Assembly (NCBI GenBank): GCA_038727515.1 | Contig: JAVYVS010000001.1 | Location: 384,001-448,000, forward strand | Source of the DNA: Candidatus Methanomethylicia archaeon | Lineage (GTDB): Archaea > Thermoproteota > Methanomethylicia > Culexarchaeales > Culexarchaeaceae | Direction: 5' to 3' | DNA length: 64,000 nucleotides | In this document: positions 859-52,131 of the stretch, piece by piece | How the letters are laid out: every line of letters starts with the position of its first letter | Numbering within the stretch: position 1 is the stretch's first letter | Notes under the pieces: model-generated | The model's database searches: none | What the model saw: the letters and a program-made list of their open reading frames with translations, nothing else | What the model was told of the DNA's origin: nothing | Program-made: the position numbers and the translations under genes

Positions 859-1635
859 ATGAATAATGAAGAATTATTTCGCAAAATAACCGAATTACTA
901 AGTGAAAGGAAAACTGTAGCTCTATGTACAGTAATAGAGAAAATTGGTTCTGGACCTAGAGATATTGGCGCGAAAATGATAGTATATGATGATGGTAAAA
1001 CCATGGGTAGTATAGGGGGAGGGCATATTGAGAGAATAATAGTTAAAGAAGCTTTAAAAGCCATTAAAGAAAATAAGAGTAGAGAAATAACACTTTCACT
1101 AGGTTCAGGTGAAGGTATAGAAACTGGATTGATATGTGGTGGAAGTATTAGAATTTTCATAGACATAATAAATCCGAAACCAAGATTAATAATAATTGGA
1201 TCTGGAAATATAGCAAAACCATTAGCTGAAATTGCAAATATAGTTGGATTTGATGTAATAATCGTAGATGATAATATGGAAACCGCAACAAAAGATAGAT
1301 TTCCAATGGTAAGTAAAATAATAGTGAATCAATTAACAAAGGGAATAGAAGAATTAGATATAAAAAGTGAAGATTTCATAGCAATAGTTCATGGAGATGT
1401 GGAAAAGGAATATGAAGTATTAAAAAAGATCTTGAAAACAAAAGTGAGGTATCTTGGTTTACTTGGAAGTAAAAGGAAAAGCTCTGAAATAAAAAGGAGG
1501 TTAATTGAGGAGGGATATAATAAGGAAGATGTTGAAAAAATACATTCACCAATAGGTTTAGATATAGGTGCAGAAACACCCGAAGAAATAGCTGTAAGCA
1601 TAACTGCAGAATTAATAGCAGTATTAAGGGGGTAA
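859..1635 (+). CDS. xdhC: XdhC/CoxI-family molybdenum cofactor insertion chaperone
   Basis: GSGPR..GAKM, GSIGGG, CGG, YLGLLGS, SPIGLDIGAETPEEIA motifs. Confidence 0.92.
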   Translation: MNNEELFRKITELLSERKTVALCTVIEKIGSGPRDIGAKMIVYDDGKTMGSIGGGHIERIIVKEALKAIKENKSREITLSLGSGEGIETGLICGGSIRIFIDIINPKPRLIIIGSGNIAKPLAEIANIVGFDVIIVDDNMETATKDRFPMVSKIIVNQLTKGIEELDIKSEDFIAIVHGDVEKEYEVLKKILKTKVRYLGLLGSKRKSSEIKRRLIEEGYNKEDVEKIHSPIGLDIGAETPEEIAVSITAELIAVLRG

Positions 1636-1638
1636 AAT

Positions 1639-2232
1639 ATGATTGCAGCAATAATACTTGCAGCTGGACACTCAAAAAGATTTGGCAGAAATAAACTACT
1701 AGAACCAATAAATGGAAAGCCAATGATAAAATGGACTATAGAAACAGCATTAAAAAGCAATGTAGGAAAAGTGGTAATTGTATTAGGATTTGAAGCAGAA
1801 AGAATCTATGAAGTAATAAAGGATCTACCATGTGAAAAAATTGTAAATCCAAAGTATGAATTAGGAATGAGTACATCAGTGAAATGTGGAGTTGAAAAAG
1901 TTATGGATAAAAATGAAGCAGTATTAATAATTCCAGGAGACTGCCCCTTCATAGATGAAAATACAATAAAAAACATTATAGATAGATATAGAGAAACTAA
2001 AGCACCAATAATTATAGCCACATATCAAGGTAGAAGAGGGCATCCAATATTGATAAGTAAAGAACTATATCAAGAAGTTATGAATATAAGCGAAGAGAAA
2101 ATGGGATTAAAAGAGGTAGTGAGAAAACATGAGGGAGAAATAGTTCATGTTGAAACAGATAATATGGGGGTAATAATAGATATAGATACACCAGAAGATT
2201 TAGAAAAAGCAATAGAGAAGCTTTTAAAATAA
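1639..2232 (+). CDS. mocA: Molybdenum cofactor cytidylyltransferase (MocA-like nucleotidyltransferase)
   Basis: ILAAGxSKRFG..KLL, GMSTS, GDxP, GHP, DIDTPED motifs; adjacent to xdhC. Confidence 0.88.
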   Translation: MIAAIILAAGHSKRFGRNKLLEPINGKPMIKWTIETALKSNVGKVVIVLGFEAERIYEVIKDLPCEKIVNPKYELGMSTSVKCGVEKVMDKNEAVLIIPGDCPFIDENTIKNIIDRYRETKAPIIIATYQGRRGHPILISKELYQEVMNISEEKMGLKEVVRKHEGEIVHVETDNMGVIIDIDTPEDLEKAIEKLLK

Positions 2233-2259
2233 AGCTATTAAATTAATTAAGACTATGAT

Positions 2260-3498
2260 ATGGTTAAAGGATTTAGATATATACCTCCAGAAAAAGCATT
2301 AGAAGAAGTTTTAAAACATATCCAAAGTATAAATGAAGTTGAAGAAATTCCAATACTTAATTCTGTGGGTAGAATATTAGCAGAAGATATAATAGTAAAA
2401 GAGGATATACCGCCAAGAGATACATCTCACTTTGATGGATATGCAGCAAATTATGAAGATACATTAAATGCATCATATGAAAACCCAGTAAGATTAAAGA
2501 TTAAGGGGGATATAGCACCAAATGAAGTACATAACTATGAAATTTCAAAGGGTGAAGTATATAGGATAAGTACAGGAGGCTACCTACCGAAAGGTGCTAA
2601 TACGATAATACCAGTGGAAGCAGTAAGAGTATTAGATAAAGAGACAATACAAATAACACGTAAATCAAAACCAATGGAGCATGTAATAAAATGTGGAGAA
2701 GACTATAAAAGCGGTGAAATAGCGCTGAAGATAGGTAGAATCATAAGACCTGTAGACATAGATTTAATGGCTTATATTAAGATTAAAAGGGTAAAGGTAT
2801 ATAGAAAACCAGTGATAGCAGTATTAGCCGTTGGAGATGAATTAATAATTGAAGAAACTTCACCACACACATACATGATAATGAAATTAATTGAAGAATT
2901 TGGTGCAACACCAATAGATATGGGGATAGCTAAAGATGATAACATGGATATAATGTATAAAATTGGAAAATCACTAAAGATATGTGACTTATTAATAACA
3001 ATTGGAGGATGTTCAGTGGGTGAAATGGATTTAGTTCCAGATGCAGTAATGTCAATGCCAAAATCAAAGATTATTGTTAGGGGAATAATGAGAGTTCCAG
3101 GTAGACAAACGAGTTTTGCAATTGTAGATGGAAAACCAATACTAATGCTTCCAGGATTAATACAATCTACAATCATAGGATTCTATACGCTTGGACTTCC
3201 ACTAATTTTAAAACTAAGCAATAATAATGCTAAACCCATGAAATTAAAGGTTAAATCATTTAGGGAAATAATAATTGAAAATATGCTTCCATTTGAGAGA
3301 GCAGTATTTGGTAGAATAATTGAATTAAAGGAAATACCAATAGTTGAAATATTAACTGGAAAATCATTATTGAGGAGAATGATGATAGATTCACATGGAT
3401 TTATAGTTATTCCCCCATTTAAAAATGCCATAAATAAAGGGGAGAATTTAGAACTTAATCTATTTAAGCCAAATTTATATGATAATTATGGGGATTGA
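2260..3498 (+). CDS. moeA: Molybdopterin molybdotransferase MoeA (divergent)
   Basis: GRILAEDI, DGYA, ISTGGxLPxGA, GDEL, GGxSVG motifs; the canonical LPGNP is altered. Confidence 0.82.
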   Translation: MVKGFRYIPPEKALEEVLKHIQSINEVEEIPILNSVGRILAEDIIVKEDIPPRDTSHFDGYAANYEDTLNASYENPVRLKIKGDIAPNEVHNYEISKGEVYRISTGGYLPKGANTIIPVEAVRVLDKETIQITRKSKPMEHVIKCGEDYKSGEIALKIGRIIRPVDIDLMAYIKIKRVKVYRKPVIAVLAVGDELIIEETSPHTYMIMKLIEEFGATPIDMGIAKDDNMDIMYKIGKSLKICDLLITIGGCSVGEMDLVPDAVMSMPKSKIIVRGIMRVPGRQTSFAIVDGKPILMLPGLIQSTIIGFYTLGLPLILKLSNNNAKPMKLKVKSFREIIIENMLPFERAVFGRIIELKEIPIVEILTGKSLLRRMMIDSHGFIVIPPFKNAINKGENLELNLFKPNLYDNYGD

Positions 3499-42734: not shown

Positions 42735-43514
42735 ATGGATTATTTGACGATTATGGTTAATAAGTTGAAGGAGAAATTACTTCGTAATGAAATTGCTTAT
42801 GGTGTTTGGATTACAATGAATTGTCCTGATATTGTTGAAGCTTTATCTATGTTGGATTTTGATTGGATGCTTATTGATATGGAGCATGCACCATTAACAA
42901 TTAGTGATGTTCAAAGATTACTGCAAGTAATAGATGAAGAAAAGATTACTCCAATAGTTAGAGTTTGGTGGAATGATTTTGTACAAATAAAACTTGCTTT
43001 AGATGTAGGAGCTATGGGCATTATGATTCCATGGATTAATAATGCTAAACAAGCTGAAGAAGCAGTTAAAGCCATAAGATATCCACCAAGGGGTATAAGA
43101 GGTTATGGTCCAAGGAGAGCTGCAAAATATGGATTAAAGTTAAAGGAGTATCTTGAAAGAGTTGATGAAGATATAATATTAATATCACAAATAGAAACTT
43201 TAGAAGCTGTAAAGAATTTAGATGAGATAATTAGTGTTGAAGGTGTAGATGCACTCTTCATAGGACCTTACGATTTAGCAACATCATTAGGATATCTTGG
43301 AAATCCACAACACTCAGAAGTTCAAAAAATAATAAGTGAAATACTCAATAAATGTTTAGAGAAGAATAAACCTATAGGGATATATAGTTCACTGGAAATG
43401 GCAGAAAAGCATAGAGATATGGGATTTAAAATGATCGCTATTGGAAGTGAAATAAATGCATTAATATCAACATTTAAAAACAAATTAAATGAATTAAAGG
43501 GCTCATCAAAATAA
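42735..43514 (+). CDS. HpcH/HpaI class II pyruvate aldolase
   Basis: IDMEH, LDVGA.GI..P, RYPP.G.RG, QIET, FIGPYDL motifs. Confidence 0.9.
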   Translation: MDYLTIMVNKLKEKLLRNEIAYGVWITMNCPDIVEALSMLDFDWMLIDMEHAPLTISDVQRLLQVIDEEKITPIVRVWWNDFVQIKLALDVGAMGIMIPWINNAKQAEEAVKAIRYPPRGIRGYGPRRAAKYGLKLKEYLERVDEDIILISQIETLEAVKNLDEIISVEGVDALFIGPYDLATSLGYLGNPQHSEVQKIISEILNKCLEKNKPIGIYSSLEMAEKHRDMGFKMIAIGSEINALISTFKNKLNELKGSSK

Positions 43515-43550
43515 TTTTATATAAATTAATTATTTCAATAATTTTTCCAT

Positions 43551-43712
43551 TTACAAACTACGTTTCGGTATTTCATATAGTATTTGATCTTCTGAAAGAA
43601 TTAGTATACTACCACATTTTAAACATCTATAATACTTATTAACTCCATGCTCACCTTTTTGTTCACCTAGAAATTCAACTTCACCATGACTACACTTAAT
43701 CTTCTTCTCCAT
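43551..43712 (-). CDS. Small Zn-ribbon-like protein (53 aa, not in ORF track)
   Basis: Hand translation MEKKIKCSHGEVEFLGEQKGEHGVNKYYRCLKCGSILILSEDQILYEIPKRSL*. Confidence 0.7.
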   Translation of the reverse strand: MEKKIKCSHGEVEFLGEQKGEHGVNKYYRCLKCGSILILSEDQILYEIPKRSL

Positions 43713-43863
43713 AGAGACCATGATAAAATATGAAAAACAATATTAAAAATATTCATTACTCAAAAGAGAATGTTCAAATTAGGTAAGTAAATATCTCAAA
43801 AATAAAAATGTATGTGGAGGAATTATTGAAGATTATTTACAATATTATTAAATAATTTCAAAT

Positions 43864-45462
43864 TCATTTTCGTATATGCTTCCTTAAAACTCTTCCAGGT
43901 TTTGCACCTGTATGTTTCCCATTAAATACCACTGGTACACCATTTACTATAACATGAATTATACCTGTTGGTAGTTGATGTGGATCTGTAAATATAGCGT
44001 TATCCTTTACAGTTTCTGGATTGAATACCACTATATCTGCATATGCTCCTTCACGTATTATTCCACGATCTCTAAATCCAAGTCTCCATGCTGGTAGATA
44101 AGTCATTTTTCTTATAGCTTGCTCTAAACTTATAATTTTACGTTCACGTGAATATACACCTAAAACCCTTGGGAATGTCCCATAATATCTTGGGTGAGGT
44201 TTACCTTTACCTAAAACTCCCTCCGGAGCTACTGCACTCCCATCAGATCCAACCATAACCCATGGAAGTTTCATGGCAAATTCAACATCTTCTTCACACA
44301 TACCAAAGCTTATATGTGAAACTCTACTCTCTTCATCTAATAAAAGCTTTATAACTGTATCCACGGGATTTAAACCAAGTATTCTAGATATTTCACTAAT
44401 GGTTTTCCCTAGGAATTGTTTATTCTTTTCTAAGTATGATATCATTATCCTATCCCAATAATCAGGTTCTCTCTTAGAATATCCTTCAAGATGAGCTTTG
44501 ATTTTAATTAGATCTTCAGGGTTTTTCAATCTCTCTAATAATTTTTCAGCTCCACCTTCATGAGCCCAATCTGGAAGTAATGCACTTAAACTTGTGCTTG
44601 AAGCGATGTATGGGTATTGATCTGCAGTTACATCTACACCCCTATTTCTAGCTTCTTCAATTAATTTAGCTGCATCTCTAATTTTACCCCAATTTAATTT
44701 TCCACTAGCTTTAAAATGACTAATCTCCACTGGGATTCCAGCTTCCTCCCCTATACGTATAGCTTCTTTAACAGCTTCAAGTAGAGTTGCACCTTCACCT
44801 CTAATGTGACTTGCATATATACCACCATATTGAGCTACAACTTTAGCTAATTCAATTATCTCCTCAGTTTTAGCATAACAACTTGGAGGATAAATTAAAC
44901 CTGTACTTAAACCTACAGCTCCATCCATCATAGCTTCAGCTACAAGCCTTTTCATCTCCTCCAATTCATTCCTTGTGGGTTCTCTATTTACAAAACCCAT
45001 AACATAAGATCTAACCGTAGAATGCCCTACATGGGAAGCCACATTGACAGATATACCACCCTTTTCAAGTTTATTGAAGTATTCACCCATGGTAGACCAA
45101 TCCAATTTAATTTGCCCTTCAAATTCAGGTAAAACAAATTTCTCCATGTAAACTTTCATTAAATCATTAAGTGGAGCTGCAGAACTACCACAATTACCCA
45201 CAACCTCCAATGTAACACCTTGATGAATCTTACTAATAGCTCTACCATCAACAAGCAATTCCAAATCAGAATGACTATGCATATCAATAAACCCTGGAGA
45301 AACAGCTAAACCTCTAGCATCAATAATAATCTTAGCATCCATACCCTTAGCACTACCAATAAAGGATATCTTATCATTTAAAACTCCAATATCACCATAA
45401 AACCATGGATTACCAGTACCATCAAAAATCTTTCCACCAACAATAAGTAAATCAAACTCCAT
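43864..45462 (-). CDS. N-acyl-D-amino-acid deacylase (D-aminoacylase)
   Basis: DGTGNP, PGFIDMHSHSD, GNCG, SHIRGE, DQYPY, HPRYYGTFPR motifs. Confidence 0.92.
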   Translation of the reverse strand: MEFDLLIVGGKIFDGTGNPWFYGDIGVLNDKISFIGSAKGMDAKIIIDARGLAVSPGFIDMHSHSDLELLVDGRAISKIHQGVTLEVVGNCGSSAAPLNDLMKVYMEKFVLPEFEGQIKLDWSTMGEYFNKLEKGGISVNVASHVGHSTVRSYVMGFVNREPTRNELEEMKRLVAEAMMDGAVGLSTGLIYPPSCYAKTEEIIELAKVVAQYGGIYASHIRGEGATLLEAVKEAIRIGEEAGIPVEISHFKASGKLNWGKIRDAAKLIEEARNRGVDVTADQYPYIASSTSLSALLPDWAHEGGAEKLLERLKNPEDLIKIKAHLEGYSKREPDYWDRIMISYLEKNKQFLGKTISEISRILGLNPVDTVIKLLLDEESRVSHISFGMCEEDVEFAMKLPWVMVGSDGSAVAPEGVLGKGKPHPRYYGTFPRVLGVYSRERKIISLEQAIRKMTYLPAWRLGFRDRGIIREGAYADIVVFNPETVKDNAIFTDPHQLPTGIIHVIVNGVPVVFNGKHTGAKPGRVLRKHIRK

Positions 45463-45560
45463 ATAATATCAAACCTATATTTAAATGAGAAATATAAAAA
45501 TGATTCCATAAACAATTAAATCTCAAATATATGAATAGATTAGACCTTTACAATAAACTT

Positions 45561-47012
45561 CTATAATGGTTTACACATGTATGGACTATCCTTAAGTTTT
45601 CTATAACCTAAACGTCTATAATAACTTCTAACACCAATACCAGATAACACTAAAATCTTCTTTGCATCAAATTCCTCCATAGATATTCTTTCAGCTTCAG
45701 ATAGCAACATTGCTCCAAGACCTTTATGTTGCCATTCAATAGTTGATTTAACACCTACTGGAACTTGAGGTCCATAAACATGTAATTCTCTAACTATTGT
45801 TGTTTTAGAATTTATTTGACGTCTATGAGCTAATGGTGATGGATATCTAAGTCTAAGGAAGGCTAGTAATATATCCCTAACACTATCTTCAATAGACAAG
45901 AATACTTCAACACCACCACTAGCTTCAAATCTCTCAATAAACAACTTAATATCCTCCAATTTTGGGTATACATTTTCCTTCAACATTTTATGCCCAACTT
46001 CTCTACATCTAATACAATTACACTTTAAACCCATACTCTTCAATCTCTCATGTACAACCTCCCTTAAATGCCCTATATTAACTCCTGCTTCCACAACATT
46101 TAACGGTATATCCCTTTGAATACGCATAATCCTAACCCACCTTGGAATTCTCGGTAAAACCTTTATTAAAAGTTCAATAGCATCTTCAGTTGTAAATGGC
46201 TTATATAAACCCTTAATCCAAAGATCATAAAGTCCAGTTCCCTTAACAACTATAGTTGGATAAATCTTAAGCATATCAGGCATAAAATTTGGATCACTAA
46301 AAATAGTTTCAAAAACCTTAAGATCCATATCTAAATCACTACCTGGAAGTCCAGGCATAATATGATAACATACTTTGAATCCACAATCCTTCAATATTCT
46401 AGTAGATTCTATTGTATCCTTAACACTATGACCTCTACGAACTTTAACTAGAATATCATCAAAAATGGTTTGTACACCCAATTCAACCCTAGTACCCCCA
46501 AGCATTAACATTCTATCAGCATGTACCTCCTTCCCCCAATCAGGTCTAGTTTCAAAAGTCATCCCCACACATCTAATCTTTGCATACTCATTCCTCCTCT
46601 GAGCATATTCTAAACTAATCCATTTATCAGATCTAGGATTTGGATACCTATTCATAGCTTCTAAACACATGGTTACAAACCATTCTTGATAATCAAGAGG
46701 CATAGCTGGAAATGTTCCACCCATAATTATTAATTCAATTTTAGATGGATTATGACCTAGAGAATAATATTGATTCAATCTAGCCCTAACTTGCTCATAT
46801 GGATCATAATTAAATTCTTGAGCCCTCATTAAAGCTGGCTCCCTACCATAATAGCTCTGTGGAGTACCATATTCAGGTCCACCTGGACAATAAATACATT
46901 TACCATGTGGACATGGATATGGATGAGCCATAACGGCAACTACATTAACACCAGAAATACTCCTAATAGGCTTCTTCAAACCCTTAAAATACTCAATCAA
47001 ACTATCAAGCAT
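45561..47012 (-). CDS. elp3: tRNA U34 carboxymethyltransferase Elp3 (radical SAM + GNAT)
   Basis: RSISGV, CPHGKCIYCPGG, ETRPD, KIYPT, RELHVYG, QHKGLG motifs. Confidence 0.95.
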   Translation of the reverse strand: MLDSLIEYFKGLKKPIRSISGVNVVAVMAHPYPCPHGKCIYCPGGPEYGTPQSYYGREPALMRAQEFNYDPYEQVRARLNQYYSLGHNPSKIELIIMGGTFPAMPLDYQEWFVTMCLEAMNRYPNPRSDKWISLEYAQRRNEYAKIRCVGMTFETRPDWGKEVHADRMLMLGGTRVELGVQTIFDDILVKVRRGHSVKDTIESTRILKDCGFKVCYHIMPGLPGSDLDMDLKVFETIFSDPNFMPDMLKIYPTIVVKGTGLYDLWIKGLYKPFTTEDAIELLIKVLPRIPRWVRIMRIQRDIPLNVVEAGVNIGHLREVVHERLKSMGLKCNCIRCREVGHKMLKENVYPKLEDIKLFIERFEASGGVEVFLSIEDSVRDILLAFLRLRYPSPLAHRRQINSKTTIVRELHVYGPQVPVGVKSTIEWQHKGLGAMLLSEAERISMEEFDAKKILVLSGIGVRSYYRRLGYRKLKDSPYMCKPL

Positions 47013-47047
47013 AACAATTAAATAAATGGAATAGTGAGATAAAAGGT

Positions 47048-47767
47048 TTAAGGCTTAAATAATATAGCCACATGATTCTCAGAAAATCTAGTCTTCCTAA
47101 AACTTTTACCATAAAAATATGCTAAATGAAATTTTGAAGATCTACAAAGCCTAAGAAATTCCCTCCTAGAAAATAGATGATGGAAACGTAGATAAACACC
47201 ACCTCGAGATTTCCATGGAATATATACGTCACCATATTCTTTAACACGCCTTAAAAAACGATTAAACAACATTTTAGGAATCAATTTGAAAAATCTATAT
47301 TGATATAAAGCCCAAACACTTAAAACTAATATCCCAAACTTCCTTAAAACCCTAAAAATCTCATTTAAAGCATCAACCCTACACTTAAACAATGGAATAT
47401 GATGGATAGTAGCTAAACATAGAGCATGATCTATAGAACAAGATCTAAATGGTAGAAAGTTAATATCACATACAACTCCATTAATAAACCTATAACTCTC
47501 CCTAAACCTAACCTTAGATAAACATAATTTAACCATAACTGGAGAGATATCAACAGCTAAAACTTCACATCCCTCATTAACTAAAGCTATAGAATGTCTA
47601 CCAGAACCACAACCTAAATCAACAATTAAACCACCAAACCTAGATAAAAGATAAACTTCACTCCAAGGCTTAACCCTAGTAACATCAAATTCATATGCAA
47701 TACTACTAAAAACATCCATAACACTCCTCTTAACATTAAAAGTATAACCCATAGAATCACTCAACAC
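47048..47767 (-). CDS. Class I SAM methyltransferase, Trm9/ALKBH8-like
   Basis: DLGCGSGR, ATIHHI..R..AL.E..RVL, VWA..Q, DVYIPW, RFHHLF pattern shared with Trm9/ALKBH8 MTase domains. Confidence 0.75.
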   Translation of the reverse strand: MLSDSMGYTFNVKRSVMDVFSSIAYEFDVTRVKPWSEVYLLSRFGGLIVDLGCGSGRHSIALVNEGCEVLAVDISPVMVKLCLSKVRFRESYRFINGVVCDINFLPFRSCSIDHALCLATIHHIPLFKCRVDALNEIFRVLRKFGILVLSVWALYQYRFFKLIPKMLFNRFLRRVKEYGDVYIPWKSRGGVYLRFHHLFSRREFLRLCRSSKFHLAYFYGKSFRKTRFSENHVAILFKP

Positions 47768-47958
47768 CCCTTAAAAACCTTCTCTTTAAACTTCATAACA
47801 ACATAGGGGACCAATCGTTTATCATCAACCTTATACAATACTAAACCCAAGGAAAAAACAATACGCTTACCACAATTAAAACACTGAAAACTTTTAACAC
47901 CAGCCCTAACAGCCCTAACATCACCACAATAAGGACACTTAACAACTAAATAACTCAT
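47761..47958 (-). CDS. Small Zn-ribbon protein (DUF1922-like)
   Basis: CPYCG...CFNCG; stop overlaps the MTase 5' end. Confidence 0.75.
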   Translation of the reverse strand: MSYLVVKCPYCGDVRAVRAGVKSFQCFNCGKRIVFSLGLVLYKVDDKRLVPYVVMKFKEKVFKGC

Positions 47959-48017
47959 ACATATAATTAAGAAGTGAACATCATATTTAAAGGAAACGTA
48001 AATAAATTAAAAGGTGT

Positions 48018-48872
48018 ATGATGACATTAAGAGAAATAAAAAGACTTTGGCTTAGAAGCCTAGACGTAATAGGAGATATAGCAATAATAGAATTAAAACC
48101 AGAATTTAAAGACAGAAAAATTGAAGTAGCAAAGAAAATACTTGAAGAAGTAAAATACATAAAGGTTGTTGTAGAGAAGAAGAGTCCAATAAGTGGAGAC
48201 TATAGGATTATGGATTTAGAATGGCTTGCAGGAGAAAAAAGATTTACCACAATACATAGAGAATATGGATGCATATTCAAGTTAGATATATCAAAAGTAT
48301 ATTTCACACCAAGACTATCCACAGAGAGAATGAGAATAGCTGAAAAAGTTTTAGCTGGAGAAACTATAGTGAACATGTTTGCTGGAATAGGAACATACTC
48401 AATAGTAATAGCTAGAAAAGCCAAAAATAAACCATCAAAGATATATTCTATAGACATAAACCCAGAAGCACATAAATACGCCATAGAAAACATAAAATTA
48501 AACAAAGTTGAAGACATAGTAATACCATTACTTGGAGATGCAAAAGAAATTATAATGGAAAAACTAGTTGAAATAGCCGATAGAGTTCTAATGCCATACC
48601 CAGAATTAGCATTAAAATACCTACCCTATGCAATAATAGCATTAAAAGAAACTGGAGGAGTAATACATGCCTACGACTTCATAAAATACATGAAAGGAGA
48701 AAACCCAAAGGAAAAAATGAAAAGTAGATATGAAGAAGAACTTACTAAACTTGGAGTAGAATATGAAATAATAGATGTTAGAAGAACTGGAGAAGTTGCA
48801 CCAAGAGAATACAGAATGGCCATAGACATAAAAATAAACAGTAAAACTGGCTTAAGATTTCTTAAGTCATGA
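48018..48872 (+). CDS. Trm5/Taw2-family (Met10+) tRNA methyltransferase, short form
   Basis: DVIGDIA, T.HREYG..F.LD..KVYF.PRL..ER, MFAGIG, DINP, DRVLMPYP motifs. Confidence 0.88.
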   Translation: MMTLREIKRLWLRSLDVIGDIAIIELKPEFKDRKIEVAKKILEEVKYIKVVVEKKSPISGDYRIMDLEWLAGEKRFTTIHREYGCIFKLDISKVYFTPRLSTERMRIAEKVLAGETIVNMFAGIGTYSIVIARKAKNKPSKIYSIDINPEAHKYAIENIKLNKVEDIVIPLLGDAKEIIMEKLVEIADRVLMPYPELALKYLPYAIIALKETGGVIHAYDFIKYMKGENPKEKMKSRYEEELTKLGVEYEIIDVRRTGEVAPREYRMAIDIKINSKTGLRFLKS

Positions 48873-49908
48873 TTATTTGATTTATAGTTAGATTTAACAC
48901 TATTTCAGCAATATCACTTGCATATTCCCCAAATCTTCTAATACTTTCTAAAATCATCCTTATATTTGAAATCAATACCTTGTCGGTTTTCCCTCCAACA
49001 AGAGTCTTTATTATTTCATTTTCCATTGATGCTATTTTCTTAGTTTCTGATATGGTTTTTTCTGCTAGAAGATAATCCATTTTAAATAGGGATTCCACAG
49101 ATCTTTCAAATATTGATTTAACAAAGTTGCTCATATCTAAAATTTTTTGCAAAATTGATTCATCTAATTTTTCATCAATTAAAAGAACATTTCTAGATAT
49201 CTTAACCGTATGATCAGCTGCCCTTTCAACAAATTTTATCACAACTCTATAACCCAAACAATCCTTTGGATTTGAAAGTCCAATTTCTTTTAGAATTTTA
49301 TTATTTTGTACAGCAAATTTTAATTGTCTAATTATGTAAAAGCTAAAGCGATCAACTTCATCGTCTAGTTCAATTACATTCTTAGCAAGTTCTTTATCTA
49401 AATTGACCAATGCTTTAACAGCATCATTAAACATTGAAGATGTAATTAAACAAACACGTCTAAGAGCACTCTCCACAGAAAGCTCTGGATAACTGACTAA
49501 AACTTTAATTATGATTTCTTGAGATGAATCAAATATGATCTCTGTACCAACTAACTTTCTCTTTACCAATTCCCTTATAGCATTTCTTTGTGATGGAGTT
49601 ATATTATTATCATCTACAGTTTTAATTCTAATAGAGCTGTACCCATTGAGGTATATGGATATTATTGCTCTAGCAATTTTCTCCGGAGTATCATCAACAG
49701 ATATTTTGAGTATAGCTTCAGGGAAACTTATCTTTGGTTTAGCTAAATCCTTTGGAATTAAAATAAGTGATTCTCCTTCCTGAAGTATTACAATAGAACT
49801 ACCAGCTTTAAGACCCATTTCAGAAACCCATTTTTTCGGTAAAGAGACTGTATACGTTGATCCTCCAGTTAATTGAATCCGCCTTATTTCCTCATTCTCC
49901 ATAAACAC
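48862..49908 (-). CDS. Archaeal phosphate regulator (AbrB-like N-terminus + two PhoU repeats)
   Basis: RRIQLTGGSTYTVSLPK.W; DDEVDR, ERAADH. Confidence 0.9.
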   Translation of the reverse strand: MFMENEEIRRIQLTGGSTYTVSLPKKWVSEMGLKAGSSIVILQEGESLILIPKDLAKPKISFPEAILKISVDDTPEKIARAIISIYLNGYSSIRIKTVDDNNITPSQRNAIRELVKRKLVGTEIIFDSSQEIIIKVLVSYPELSVESALRRVCLITSSMFNDAVKALVNLDKELAKNVIELDDEVDRFSFYIIRQLKFAVQNNKILKEIGLSNPKDCLGYRVVIKFVERAADHTVKISRNVLLIDEKLDESILQKILDMSNFVKSIFERSVESLFKMDYLLAEKTISETKKIASMENEIIKTLVGGKTDKVLISNIRMILESIRRFGEYASDIAEIVLNLTINQIIMT

Positions 49909-49936
49909 TCAACCTATCTATATAGTTTACTTTCGT

Positions 49937-49966
49937 ATATATATTTTATTTTGATAAAATATATAT
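49937..49966. promoter_or_regulatory. Palindrome in the divergent pst promoter
   Basis: ATATATATTTTAT-tttg-ATAAAATATATAT, perfect 13-bp arms. Confidence 0.5.
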
Positions 49967-50002
49967 TTTTCCCAACAGCATAAATGCCATAGGGATTAAA
50001 AT

Positions 50003-51118
50003 ATGAAGATGATCAATAAAATCGTAATAATGGTTATGATCGCCATAATAGCAACTACAAGCTTCATAGCTTACCAAAAAATCACATTACAACAAGAAAA
50101 AGAGATATCCCTTAATGGTGCAGGTGCAACGTTCCCCTTTCCATTAATTGATAAATGGATTGCTGAATATCGTAAAGTTAATTCAAAAGTTCTAATAAAT
50201 TATCAACCTATTGGTAGTGGTGGTGGGATTAGAGCTCATATGGAAAAAACTGTACACTTTGCAGCTAGCGATGCCCCACTCAGCGATGTCCAATTTAGAA
50301 ATGCCACTGGAACACTACATATACCAATAACTATAGGAGGAGTTGTTCCAATATATAATTTACCGGGAATATCAATTTATTTAAATTTCACAGGCGAAGT
50401 CCTATCTAAGATATTCCTAGGGGAAATAAGAAGATGGAATGACCCAAGCATAAAGGCAATAAATCCTGGAGTAAACCTCCCAGACAAAGAAATAATTGTT
50501 GTCCATAGATCTGATGGTAGTGGAACTACATTTGTCTGGACTAGCTATCTTTCAGCTGTTAGCAATAAATGGAGGGAAACTGTTGGCAAAGGAACTTCCG
50601 TAAATTGGCCTATTGGAATTGGAGCTAAGGGTAATGAGGGGGTCGCCGCTTTTGTTCAGCAAACACCATATTCCATAGGTTATGTGGAATTTGCTTATGC
50701 AAAAAAGAATAACCTACTATATGGCCGTATACAAAATGCTGCTGGAGAATTCATTGAACCAAATATAGAAGCTTTCATGAAAGCTGCAGCAACCTCTGCT
50801 ATCACTCTACCAAAAGGAGATGAAAACTGGTCAAATGTTTCAATAATAGATAGCATAGTAAATAATAAAGAAGCAAAAGGAGCATATCCAATCACGAGCT
50901 TTTCCTATATACTAGTATATAAGGAGCTCAGCATTTTGCCAAACATAAATGAAGATACAGCCAAAGAACTAGTTTATTTCCTCTGGTGGATTATTCATGA
51001 TGGACAAAATTATGCAACCAGTTTATACTATGTTCCATTACCTAAAGAAATTGTTAAACAAAATGAGGAAACCATTAAGATGATGACCTTTAATGGACGG
51101 CAAATTTACAGAGGTTAA
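50003..51118 (+). CDS. pstS: Phosphate ABC transporter substrate-binding protein
   Basis: GAGATFP, GSGGG, HRSDGSGTT, GNEGV motifs. Confidence 0.95.
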   Translation: MKMINKIVIMVMIAIIATTSFIAYQKITLQQEKEISLNGAGATFPFPLIDKWIAEYRKVNSKVLINYQPIGSGGGIRAHMEKTVHFAASDAPLSDVQFRNATGTLHIPITIGGVVPIYNLPGISIYLNFTGEVLSKIFLGEIRRWNDPSIKAINPGVNLPDKEIIVVHRSDGSGTTFVWTSYLSAVSNKWRETVGKGTSVNWPIGIGAKGNEGVAAFVQQTPYSIGYVEFAYAKKNNLLYGRIQNAAGEFIEPNIEAFMKAAATSAITLPKGDENWSNVSIIDSIVNNKEAKGAYPITSFSYILVYKELSILPNINEDTAKELVYFLWWIIHDGQNYATSLYYVPLPKEIVKQNEETIKMMTFNGRQIYRG

Positions 51119-51129
51119 TTGGTGAGAAA

Positions 51130-52131
51130 ATGAAAAATCTTAAGGAAAAAATTCCTAGTTCTATTTTTTATTACTTAAAATCACGAATATCTTCACTTTT
51201 TAAACTTTCATTAAATGGAGATTACATCTTTAAAATTTTTAGTGGTCTTATTGCATCAAGTACCATTTTGATTCTCGGTTTAATCATATACGAGTTGATT
51301 CTCGGTTCTAGACTCTCAATGGAAACCTTTGGTTTAAGATTTATAGTTGGCGTAGAATGGGATCCAGCAATAAAACGTAGCTTTGGGGCTCTACCATTAA
51401 TACTTGGTACATTAACAACTTCTGCAATAGCATTGTTAATAAGTCTTCCAATAAGCCTTGGTGTAGCTCTAGCACTCTCCGAATATATGCCAAAAAAACT
51501 TAGCTATTTCTTCTCTTTCCTTGTGGAACTTTTAGCAGCCGTTCCAAGCGTAGTTTATGGAATTTGGGGAGTATATGTTTTAATACCATTTTTGCGCGAC
51601 CATGTTTATTCAACTTTACAGATCACATTAGGCTTTATTCCATTATTCTCTGGACCTATATATGGCGGTGGAGTTTTGACTGGTGGAATACTACTTGCCA
51701 TAATGATCATACCAATTATCTCCTCAGTTTTAAGAGATCTATTTTCATTAGTTCCATCATCTATAAAGGAAGCCATTATCTCATTGGGAGCAACGAAATG
51801 GGAAACTGTAAAGATGATGATGAGTTATACACGCTCTGGGATTCTAGGTGCAACCATGCTCGGATTAGGAAGAGCTATTGGTGAAACTATGGCTATAACA
51901 ATGGTTATTGGAAACAAATTTAAGGTTTTTCCATCATCGCTCTTTGATTCTTGGTATACTATGTCAGCAATAATTGCAAACGAATTTCTAGAAGCAACAT
52001 ACGACTTATATATTAGCGCATTGATAAATGTCGGTTTAATACTCTTACTAATAAACTTGACAATAGTAATTTTAGCGAGATTGATTATTTGGCGCTCTCT
52101 TAGAATAGTTAGGGGGATAATGAGAGAATGA
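51130..52131 (+). CDS. pstC: Phosphate ABC permease PstC
   Basis: ELLAAVPSVVYGIWG, LGRAIGETMA. Confidence 0.94.
   Translation: MKNLKEKIPSSIFYYLKSRISSLFKLSLNGDYIFKIFSGLIASSTILILGLIIYELILGSRLSMETFGLRFIVGVEWDPAIKRSFGALPLILGTLTTSAIALLISLPISLGVALALSEYMPKKLSYFFSFLVELLAAVPSVVYGIWGVYVLIPFLRDHVYSTLQITLGFIPLFSGPIYGGGVLTGGILLAIMIIPIISSVLRDLFSLVPSSIKEAIISLGATKWETVKMMMSYTRSGILGATMLGLGRAIGETMAITMVIGNKFKVFPSSLFDSWYTMSAIIANEFLEATYDLYISALINVGLILLLINLTIVILARLIIWRSLRIVRGIMRE

Follow-up and report, generated by a model that had tools for sequence, protein, structure and literature searches.

Our analysis makes it likely that the locus described here, part of a 64,000-nucleotide stretch of archaeal DNA (the window), is an archaeal Trm9-Elp3 wobble-uridine gene pair, and that the small Zn-ribbon protein encoded alongside it is not a pathway-specific subunit. 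Elp3 and the methyltransferase are an already described archaeal gene pair for mcm5U wobble modification, and the main outcome of the work is correct annotation. We infer the wobble-uridine chemistry of this locus from three kinds of observation, namely the families to which the proteins belong, the conservation of key residues and the linkage of the genes.

An ORF check confirmed the four ORFs of the locus at the positions given in the preliminary description (Table 1), which had correctly recognized the Zn-ribbon, methyltransferase and Elp3 genes as a closely packed, co-oriented set on the minus strand. If the methyltransferase begins at its annotated GTG codon, the end of the Zn-ribbon gene overlaps it by 7 nt. 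The true start of the methyltransferase may be an alternative ATG at 47752, in which case the Zn-ribbon stop ends 8 nt upstream of it. A gap of 35 nt separates the methyltransferase from Elp3, and the Zn-ribbon is probably co-transcribed with these two genes as the first of the unit. In one metatranscriptome, three short contigs map to Elp3 and the methyltransferase, and none of the three bridges a gene junction. The divergent intergenic region between the Zn-ribbon and Trm5-family genes is 59 bp long and has at its middle, about 30 nt from the start codon on either side, an A/T octamer that is a possible TATA box common to both directions. An Rfam search of 43000-50500 returned no matches. 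A sigma-70 promoter scan gave a score not above that of shuffled sequences and is irrelevant because the host is an archaeon.

Table 1. Features of the Trm9-Elp3 locus (positions in the window)
Feature	Position	Strand	Length	Assignment
Elp3	45561-47012	-	483 aa	Radical-SAM and acetyltransferase enzyme, predicted to form cm5U34 on tRNA
Trm9/ALKBH8-family SAM methyltransferase	47048-47767	-	239 aa	Predicted cm5U34 to mcm5U34
Zn-ribbon, DUF1922/DUF5817 family, MTH1184 homologue	47761-47958	-	65 aa	Probable first gene of operon
A/T octamer	47984-47991	TATTTAAA on +, TTTAAATA on -		Read directly from the sequence; possible TATA box
Trm5-family tRNA methyltransferase	48018-48872	+		Divergent; Trm5b-like, probably m1G37

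The Elp3 translation contains the Cx4Cx2C radical-SAM motif CPHGKCIYC and scores 699 bits against TIGR01211, above the curated cut-off of 350, with model positions 57-521 of 522 covered. The Pfam domains Radical_SAM and Radical_SAM_C are both found, and the GNAT match is weak (17.5 bits). The gene that the preliminary description had placed divergently from the operon does belong to the Trm5 family, as it matches PF02475 at 172 bits (cut-off 28) and TYW2_N_2 at 46.6 bits. Its best NCBIfam model is Trm5b (229 bits, under the model's cut-off of 600), it is the sole full-length member of the family in the genome, and its product is probably an m1G37 enzyme.

In the methyltransferase the SAM motif DxGxGxG is present, with D50, G52, G54 and G56 invariant in relatives, and the AF2 model (pLDDT 94.8) has a Rossmann-type methyltransferase topology. 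The protein matches Methyltransf_11 at 68 bits, and the only Pfam and NCBIfam models that it matches above cut-off are generic methyltransferase models, as would be the case if the enzyme simply resembled Trm9 and acted on some other substrate, for instance another carboxylate or a small molecule. Its linkage to Elp3 would then reflect a different chemistry, such as formation of another cm5U derivative. Family-level comparisons speak against this reading. When the methyltransferase family profile was compared with the PDB, the first match was Yarrowia lipolytica Trm9 (5cm2_Z, E 3.2e-24, 88.9 bits; next match 70.2), and among long proteins the best four matches, one of them named ALKBH8, all carry an AlkB domain (153-100 bits; next match 78). 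The enzyme thus scores closer to Trm9 and ALKBH8 than to other methyltransferase families, with the profile setting these two apart from all others by at least 19-22 bits. Relatives have been named TRM9 or ALKBH8 by JGI annotators. The gene is single-copy (332 bits, with paralogues at no more than 80 bits).

The motifs that had first suggested a relationship to Trm9 and ALKBH8 are all present in the translation, namely TIHHIP (120-125), VWALYQ (151-156), DVYIPW (180-185) and RFHHLF (194-199). Mutagenesis of yeast Trm9 has mapped the functional residues R29, D72, H115, H116, W145, Q149, W168, R241, Y243 and N271 (PMC4678810), and we read the alignment of the window enzyme to 5cm2_Z against Table 2 of that study. 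Nine residues align to mapped positions (R31, D73, H122, H123, W152, Q156, W185, R194 and H196), of which all except H196 are identical to their yeast counterparts, and these eight are invariant across 30 relatives. H196 takes the place of Tyr243, a residue important for the function of yeast Trm9, and most relatives have Tyr at this position; its replacement by His in the window enzyme is a point in favor of a different substrate, set against the eight conserved residues, which argue the other way. The invariant N231 is likely the counterpart of yeast N271, which falls outside the aligned stretch.

Fold and tree comparisons are less discriminating. With the methyltransferase model as query, Foldseek places the uncharacterized archaeal methyltransferases 3sm3 and 1ve3 slightly above Trm9 5cm2, a ranking that could be taken to favor another substrate and that means the fold search cannot tell Trm9 apart from other methyltransferases. 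In trees that left out named archaeal Trm9 proteins such as HVO_1032, ALKBH8 domains and the window enzyme share one set. The branch separating the Trm9/ALKBH8 set from other class I methyltransferases has 82% SH-aLRT support in a quick tree of 89 rows and 95% in a quick tree of 36 rows, and in a careful tree of the same 36 rows the split has 94% SH-aLRT and 63% ultrafast bootstrap support, with two long-branch paralogues in a polytomy. Across the trees one or two such paralogues are misplaced. The low bootstrap value again favors the other-substrate reading, although that reading must also accommodate the conserved adjacency to Elp3 and the detection of mcm5U-type nucleosides in another lineage of the Thermoproteota (PMC12124282), and we regard it as very improbable. 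Taken together, the Trm9 signature residues, the ranking of profile matches and the conserved adjacency to Elp3 support assignment of the methyltransferase to the Trm9/ALKBH8 family and bear out its original description as Trm9/ALKBH8-like.

This adjacency extends well beyond the window. The synteny survey called for in the preliminary description finds the methyltransferase directly upstream of Elp3, and co-oriented with it, in families f1 (the window's family), f2, f3, f4, f5 and f8 of the class, and in a sample of the phylum Elp3 adjoins a Trm9-like gene in 17 of the 36 genomes with a strong Trm9-like match. These observations support a functional link between the Trm9-type methyltransferase and Elp3. 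Clustering of the two genes was published for S. solfataricus by Grosjean et al. in 2008 (PMC2584109), the Haloferax volcanii Trm9 (HVO_1032)-Trm112 complex makes mcm5U (van Tran et al. 2018, PMC6144793), and work from 2025 detected both mcm5U and mcm5s2U in Sulfolobus (PMC12124282). The suggestion that a TACK archaeon with linked Elp3 and Trm9 genes provides a new clue to the origin of Elongator does not survive, because the linkage was published in 2008 and our trees do not place eukaryotic Trm9. CPR bacteria hold close homologues of the methyltransferase.

The proposal that the operon encodes the whole minimal mcm5U pathway also has to be given up, because another contig of the genome encodes both an NcsA-like thiolase (227 bits, below the model cut-off of 500) and Trm112 (PF03966, 46.8 bits; Trm112 lies around 28165-28425 of contig 3). 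Nine U34 tRNA genes are present, including those for Lys-UUU, Glu-UUC, Gln-UUG and Gly-UCC. Members of the Elp3 family use SAM and acetyl-CoA to provide the carboxymethyl group at C5 of U34 (e.g. PMC6367351), and Elp3 would in this way carboxymethylate C5 of U34 in the wobble-uridine tRNAs. The Trm9-family enzyme encoded upstream of Elp3 would then methyl-esterify cm5U to mcm5U, most likely in complex with the Trm112 encoded on the other contig, by analogy with Haloferax Trm9-Trm112 (PMC6144793), and the NcsA-like thiolase could add the s2 group to give mcm5s2U.

We sought to place the Zn-ribbon protein by profile and by fold. As a single sequence it falls under the Pfam cut-offs for DUF1922 and DUF5817 (17.7 against 30, and 20.6 against 31). 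At the level of the family, DUF1922 matches 15 of 18 members (best E 4.9e-9) and DUF5817 all 18 (best E 2.4e-8), and the family profile finds 1gh9, the structure of MTH1184, over its full length with an E of 1.9e-8. The AF2 model (pLDDT 89.5) has 1gh9 as its best fold match (Foldseek TM 0.61; VIA Z 5.2, rmsd 3.1, 61 residues aligned), and the nearest Atlas clusters are DUF5817/DUF1922. The protein is a DUF1922/DUF5817 protein and a homologue of MTH1184; the earlier label of DUF1922-like is upheld by profile and fold alike. The window gene is the one member of its family in the genome. Its knuckles read CPYC...CFNC, with the four Cys invariant in 18 relatives, in a pattern of rubredoxin-like CxxCG knuckles. 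Literature searches for DUF1922, MTH1184 and DUF5817 found no paper.

The genomic neighbors of the Zn-ribbon gene point away from Trm9. The gene directly adjoins Trm9 only in f1. A co-oriented TrmO-like gene intervenes in f2 and an opposite-strand membrane-protein gene in f3, and in the other families examined the Zn-ribbon and Trm9 genes lie far apart. Placement beside Trm9 is thus found only in this taxonomic order, and a single operon only in the window's family and one sister family. Across the Thermoproteota sample the two genes occur in the same genome 19 times, against 19.3 expected, and the presence of the Zn-ribbon is independent of that of Trm9. Its commonest neighbor is instead the Fap7/AK6 kinase, which lies no more than 1.5 kb away in 24 of the 63 genomes, the 24 being spread over eight families. 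In other Thermoproteota the Zn-ribbon gene usually lies directly downstream of Fap7/AK6, and in three of these families it is upstream of an Lsm gene. Fap7/AK6 functions in maturation of the small ribosomal subunit. Our best guess is that the Zn-ribbon protein assists maturation of the translation apparatus as a small helper that binds RNA or protein, and that its gene came to head the Trm9-Elp3 operon in this order only. Two further candidate associations were set aside. In a second genome a weak Zn-ribbon match next to a Trm9-like gene lies outside this family, being a TFIIB-type ribbon of a generic kind that ends a 288-aa protein, and the NcsA/TtuA-like genes near the Zn-ribbon in two families (f18 and f29) are convergent with it at distances of 3-800 nt, too thin an association to count.

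The preliminary description had suggested that the Zn-ribbon protein might be a Trm112 analogue or a Kti11-like cofactor of Elp3. At least in this order, it would then be a dedicated cofactor of the pathway, either activating Trm9 as Trm112 does or assisting Elp3 in the manner of Kti11/Dph3, where it might bind metal and carry electrons, or serve as a tRNA adaptor. The arrangement of the genes lends this some appeal. In all five f1 loci that contain the pair (the window and four f1 genomes) the spacing is operonic, with a gap between the Zn-ribbon and methyltransferase genes of at most 10 nt, as expected of a functional partner; the neighborhood is kept in f2 and f3, and the four invariant Cys in their rubredoxin-like setting would suit a cofactor. 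Set against this, the protein has no match to Trm112p (PF03966) in Pfam at E <=0.01, whereas the true Trm112 of the genome is recognized by that model, and this, with the chance-level co-occurrence with Trm9, leaves the comparison with Trm112 unsupported. The Kti11 comparison likewise lacks support, as Pfam finds no CSL zinc ribbon (PF05207) in the protein, which is a homologue of MTH1184 and most commonly neighbors Fap7. A search of the whole genome for the CSL zinc ribbon found none at E <=1, and neither Trm112 nor Kti11/Dph3 is among the structural matches listed for the Zn-ribbon model, for which MTH1184 is the best match by fold and by profile. Outside f1, f2 and f3 the family is far from Elp3 as well as from Trm9 in every family examined, and the Trm9-Elp3 genomes of f4 (in part), f8, g16, f14 and f25 have no detectable Zn-ribbon at all. 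We therefore consider a dedicated cofactor unlikely.

A further reading is that the DUF1922/DUF5817 Zn-ribbon is an accessory of translation maturation, normally associated with Fap7, that has been recruited as a Trm9-Elp3 cofactor in this order, where it may, for instance, bind tRNA or deliver electrons to Elp3. We give this idea little credence. If true, it would provide the first dedicated helper of a stand-alone archaeal Elp3.

Under the favored annotation of a Trm9-Elp3 pair, mcm5U or mcm5s2U wobble modification is predicted for the class Methanomethylicia, whose members include hot-spring archaea related to methanogens, with the pair kept together within the class. As regards the origin of Elongator, the locus offers nothing beyond published work, given the same pair in other archaea and the methyltransferase homologues in CPR bacteria. 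It is an ordinary locus that adds no new linkage and in which the Zn-ribbon is probably one minor passenger gene. The recurrent placement of DUF1922/DUF5817 genes behind Fap7 provides a testable lead on what this widespread family of archaeal proteins does.

The Zn-ribbon protein resembles MTH1184 (PDB 1GH9) in its similar length and in having a C-terminal helix after the beta strands of the zinc-ribbon region, but has two CxxC knuckles where MTH1184 has CxC pairs. With Trm112 and Kti11/Dph3 it shares the character of a small Cys-rich metal-binding protein linked to wobble-uridine modification, yet its sequence resembles neither family. The window enzyme and the eukaryotic Trm9-Trm112 and ALKBH8-TRMT112 systems (5CM2, PMC4678810) have in common the class I methyltransferase fold and conserved R29, D72, H115, H116, W145, Q149, W168 and R241 (yeast numbering). 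The archaeal system differs in lacking AlkB and RRM domains and a six-subunit Elongator, in having His for Tyr243 in the window's family, and in an identity to Yarrowia Trm9 of only ~25%. The closest parallels are the S. solfataricus cluster and Haloferax Trm9-Trm112, which likewise have a stand-alone archaeal Elp3 next to a Trm9-family methyltransferase, a Trm112 encoded in the genome and mcm5U34 as the predicted product. Unlike those systems, the window comes from a hot-spring MAG of the Methanomethylicia class, and has the methyltransferase gene upstream of Elp3 and co-oriented with it, preceded in the window's family by a DUF1922-type Zn-ribbon gene.

Three close-set, co-oriented genes encode a small zinc-ribbon protein with a CxxC...CxxC pattern, a methyltransferase and Elp3, and are divergent from a Trm5-family gene; all four reading frames are present as given in the preliminary description. 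The stop codon of the zinc-ribbon gene overlaps the methyltransferase start by 7 nt if GTG is used and lies 8 nt ahead of it if the alternative ATG is used, and 35 nt separate the methyltransferase from Elp3. Elp3 matches TIGR01211 at 699 bits (cut-off 350) and has the radical-SAM motif CPHGKCIYC in its translation. The Trm5-family protein (PF02475, 172 bits) is the sole full-length member of its family in the genome, a 1.59-Mb assembly of 12 contigs that is 94% complete. Hot-spring metagenomes of several studies also contain this stretch. Convergent with the Trm5-family gene is a gene whose product combines an AbrB/MazE-type domain at the N-terminus with a PhoU domain; it lies upstream of an operon for a phosphate ABC transporter (PstS-like gene at 50003, permease at 51130), an ordinary phosphate-regulon context.

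Features of the Elp3 locus and its surroundings (positions in the window)
Feature	Position	Strand	Remarks
56-aa ORF	43551-43721	-	pattern HGE...CLKCG
Elp3	45561-47012	-	483 aa
Methyltransferase (Trm9 family)	47048-47767	-	239 aa; GTG start, alternative ATG at 47752
Zn-ribbon protein	47761-47958	-	65 aa
Divergent intergenic region	47959-48017		59 bp
Octamer TATTTAAA/TTTAAATA	47984-47991
Trm5-family gene	48018-48872	+	284 aa
PhoU-domain protein	48862-49908	-

The 59 bp that separate the zinc-ribbon gene from the Trm5-family gene contain a single central octamer, TATTTAAA/TTTAAATA, equidistant (~30 nt) from both start codons, which may be a shared TATA element for two leaderless transcripts. In one metatranscriptome short contigs are present on Elp3 and on the methyltransferase, and none spans a gene junction.

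By sequence, the methyltransferase belongs to the Trm9 family. Searches of Pfam and NCBIfam return only generic class-I methyltransferase matches, and in a fold search 3sm3 and 1ve3 stand just above 5cm2, a ranking that does not discriminate. The identification as Trm9/ALKBH8-like, already made in the preliminary description, is upheld by four other lines of evidence. Firstly, a profile built from 30 orthologues in related genomes has Yarrowia lipolytica Trm9 (5cm2_Z) as its top PDB match (E 3.2e-24, 88.9 bits; runner-up 70.2 bits), and only the Trm9 alignment covers the C-terminal half. Secondly, in that alignment R31, D73, H122, H123, W152, Q156, W185 and R194 correspond to yeast R29, D72, H115, H116, W145, Q149, W168 and R241 (for a mutational map of Trm9 residues see PMC4678810), and all eight vary little or not at all among the 30 orthologues. 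The counterpart of yeast Y243 is H196, a position that is Tyr in most relatives; yeast N271 falls outside the aligned part, its counterpart likely being the invariant N231. Thirdly, when the profile search is confined to proteins of more than 441 aa, its four top matches (153-100 bits) all carry an AlkB domain, one being named ALKBH8, and generic methyltransferases follow at 78 bits or below. Finally, the genome has one Trm9-type gene (332 bits); paralogues score at most 80 bits, and the best of them is without the Trm9 motifs. Close homologues are labelled Methanomethylicia, Nezhaarchaeales and Methanosuratincola, and also occur in Patescibacteria.

The trees, built without named Trm9 sequences from haloarchaea or Sulfolobales, give weaker support for this identity than the profile, residue and copy-number evidence. 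ALKBH8 domains and the window methyltransferase share one set, and the branch separating this set from other methyltransferases receives 82% SH-aLRT in an 89-row quick tree, 95% in a 36-row quick tree, and 63% bootstrap with 94% SH-aLRT in a careful 36-row tree, where two long-branch paralogues fall in a polytomy. Neither the 89-row nor the 36-row trees place the branching point of eukaryotic Trm9.

The zinc-ribbon protein had been proposed as a Trm112 analogue or a Kti11-like cofactor of Elp3. As a single sequence it matches DUF5817 and DUF1922 below threshold; among 18 relatives sharing four invariant cysteines, DUF5817 is matched by all 18 and DUF1922 by 15, and the profile of these relatives gives a full-length match to MTH1184 (1gh9; E 1.9e-8). 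Five short strands and a helix at the C-terminus make up the AF2 model (pLDDT 89.5), whose closest structure is again 1gh9 (Foldseek TM 0.61; VIA-align Z 5.2, rmsd 3.1, 61 residues), followed by generic ribosomal zinc ribbons, with no Trm112 or Kti11 entry among the matches listed. ESM Atlas neighbours belong to DUF5817/DUF1922 clusters from several archaeal phyla, and a literature search on these small proteins returned no paper. For the 56-aa ORF downstream of an amidohydrolase gene, neither Pfam nor NCBIfam gives a match, and its resemblance to the zinc-ribbon profile is very weak (14.4 bits).

Contig 3 of the genome carries the gene for a genuine Trm112 (PF03966, 46.8 bits; 135 aa, CPxC...CxxC), and a genome-wide search found no CSL/Kti11-type zinc ribbon. 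An NcsA-like PP-loop thiolase (227 bits, under the model cut-off of 500) is also on contig 3, and the claim that the operon comprises the whole minimal mcm5U pathway thus fails, both partners lying outside it. Nine U34 tRNA genes are present, including Lys-UUU, Glu-UUC, Gln-UUG, Gly-UCC and Arg-UCG.

The zinc-ribbon gene lies immediately upstream of the methyltransferase only in the window's family (f1). A co-oriented TrmO-like gene intervenes in a sister family (f2), and an opposite-strand membrane-protein gene in a third (f3); elsewhere in the class the lone homologue is distant from the methyltransferase and has no common neighbour. At one sister-family locus (L014) the intervening gene (2205-2657, minus strand) encodes a 150-aa TrmO_N-domain protein (101.8 bits), making a co-oriented four-gene tRNA-modification cluster of zinc ribbon, TrmO_N, Trm9 and Elp3. 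In 121 evenly sampled Thermoproteota genomes, the zinc-ribbon family was detected in 76 (robust matches in 65), adjoins Trm9 in the window's family only, and is found together with Trm9 in 19 genomes against 19.3 expected under independence. The tight spacing in the window's family points to a lineage-specific role in the mcm5U pathway, which we consider improbable.

The commonest neighbour of the zinc-ribbon gene encodes a ~195-aa protein matching PRK03839 and the P. abyssi Fap7/AK6 kinase (4cvn, E 3.9e-33). In 24 of 63 genomes, spread over eight families, this gene is no more than 1.5 kb away (for example L055:2382-3698; also L056, L065, L068, L069 and others), usually directly upstream and co-oriented where orientation was checked, and in three families (f10, f21, f26) an Lsm + Lsm_C gene lies downstream. 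In the window's genome the zinc-ribbon family has a single member, and no similar gene adjoins that genome's own Fap7, so the gene studied here corresponds to those that accompany Fap7 in other genomes. The best interpretation of its product is a small protein connected with translation, whose gene heads the Trm9-Elp3 operon in one lineage, and the recurrent Fap7/AK6 adjacency and downstream Lsm gene hint at a role of the DUF1922/DUF5817 family in the maturation of ribosomes or RNA. At a further locus (L053, family f29), a TtuA/NcsA-like tRNA thiolase gene (1044-2222, plus strand) with an N-terminal ubiquitin-like extension (UBXL-type, 22.4 bits) lies ~800 nt from a DUF1922-like gene, convergent with it.

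We read the Trm9-Elp3 pair as the functional unit. The methyltransferase was found in 40 of 41 related genomes and, at the fetched loci, is directly upstream of and co-oriented with Elp3 in six families (f1-f5 and f8), though not immediately upstream in f7. Elp3 was detected in 109 of the 121 Thermoproteota genomes and a strong Trm9-like gene in ~36; the two adjoin in 17 of these 36, comprising the window's class and one genome each from f31 and f25, the f25 pair being convergent. The linkage on which an argument about Elongator origin had been based is present, but it is already known: Elp3 and Trm9 genes were reported as clustered in S. solfataricus in 2008 (Grosjean et al., PMC2584109), as restated by van Tran et al. 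in 2018 (PMC6144793), who show that mcm5U is made by Haloferax Trm9-Trm112, and in Sulfolobus a nucleoside survey published in 2025 detected mcm5U, mcm5s2U and mcm5Um (PMC12124282).
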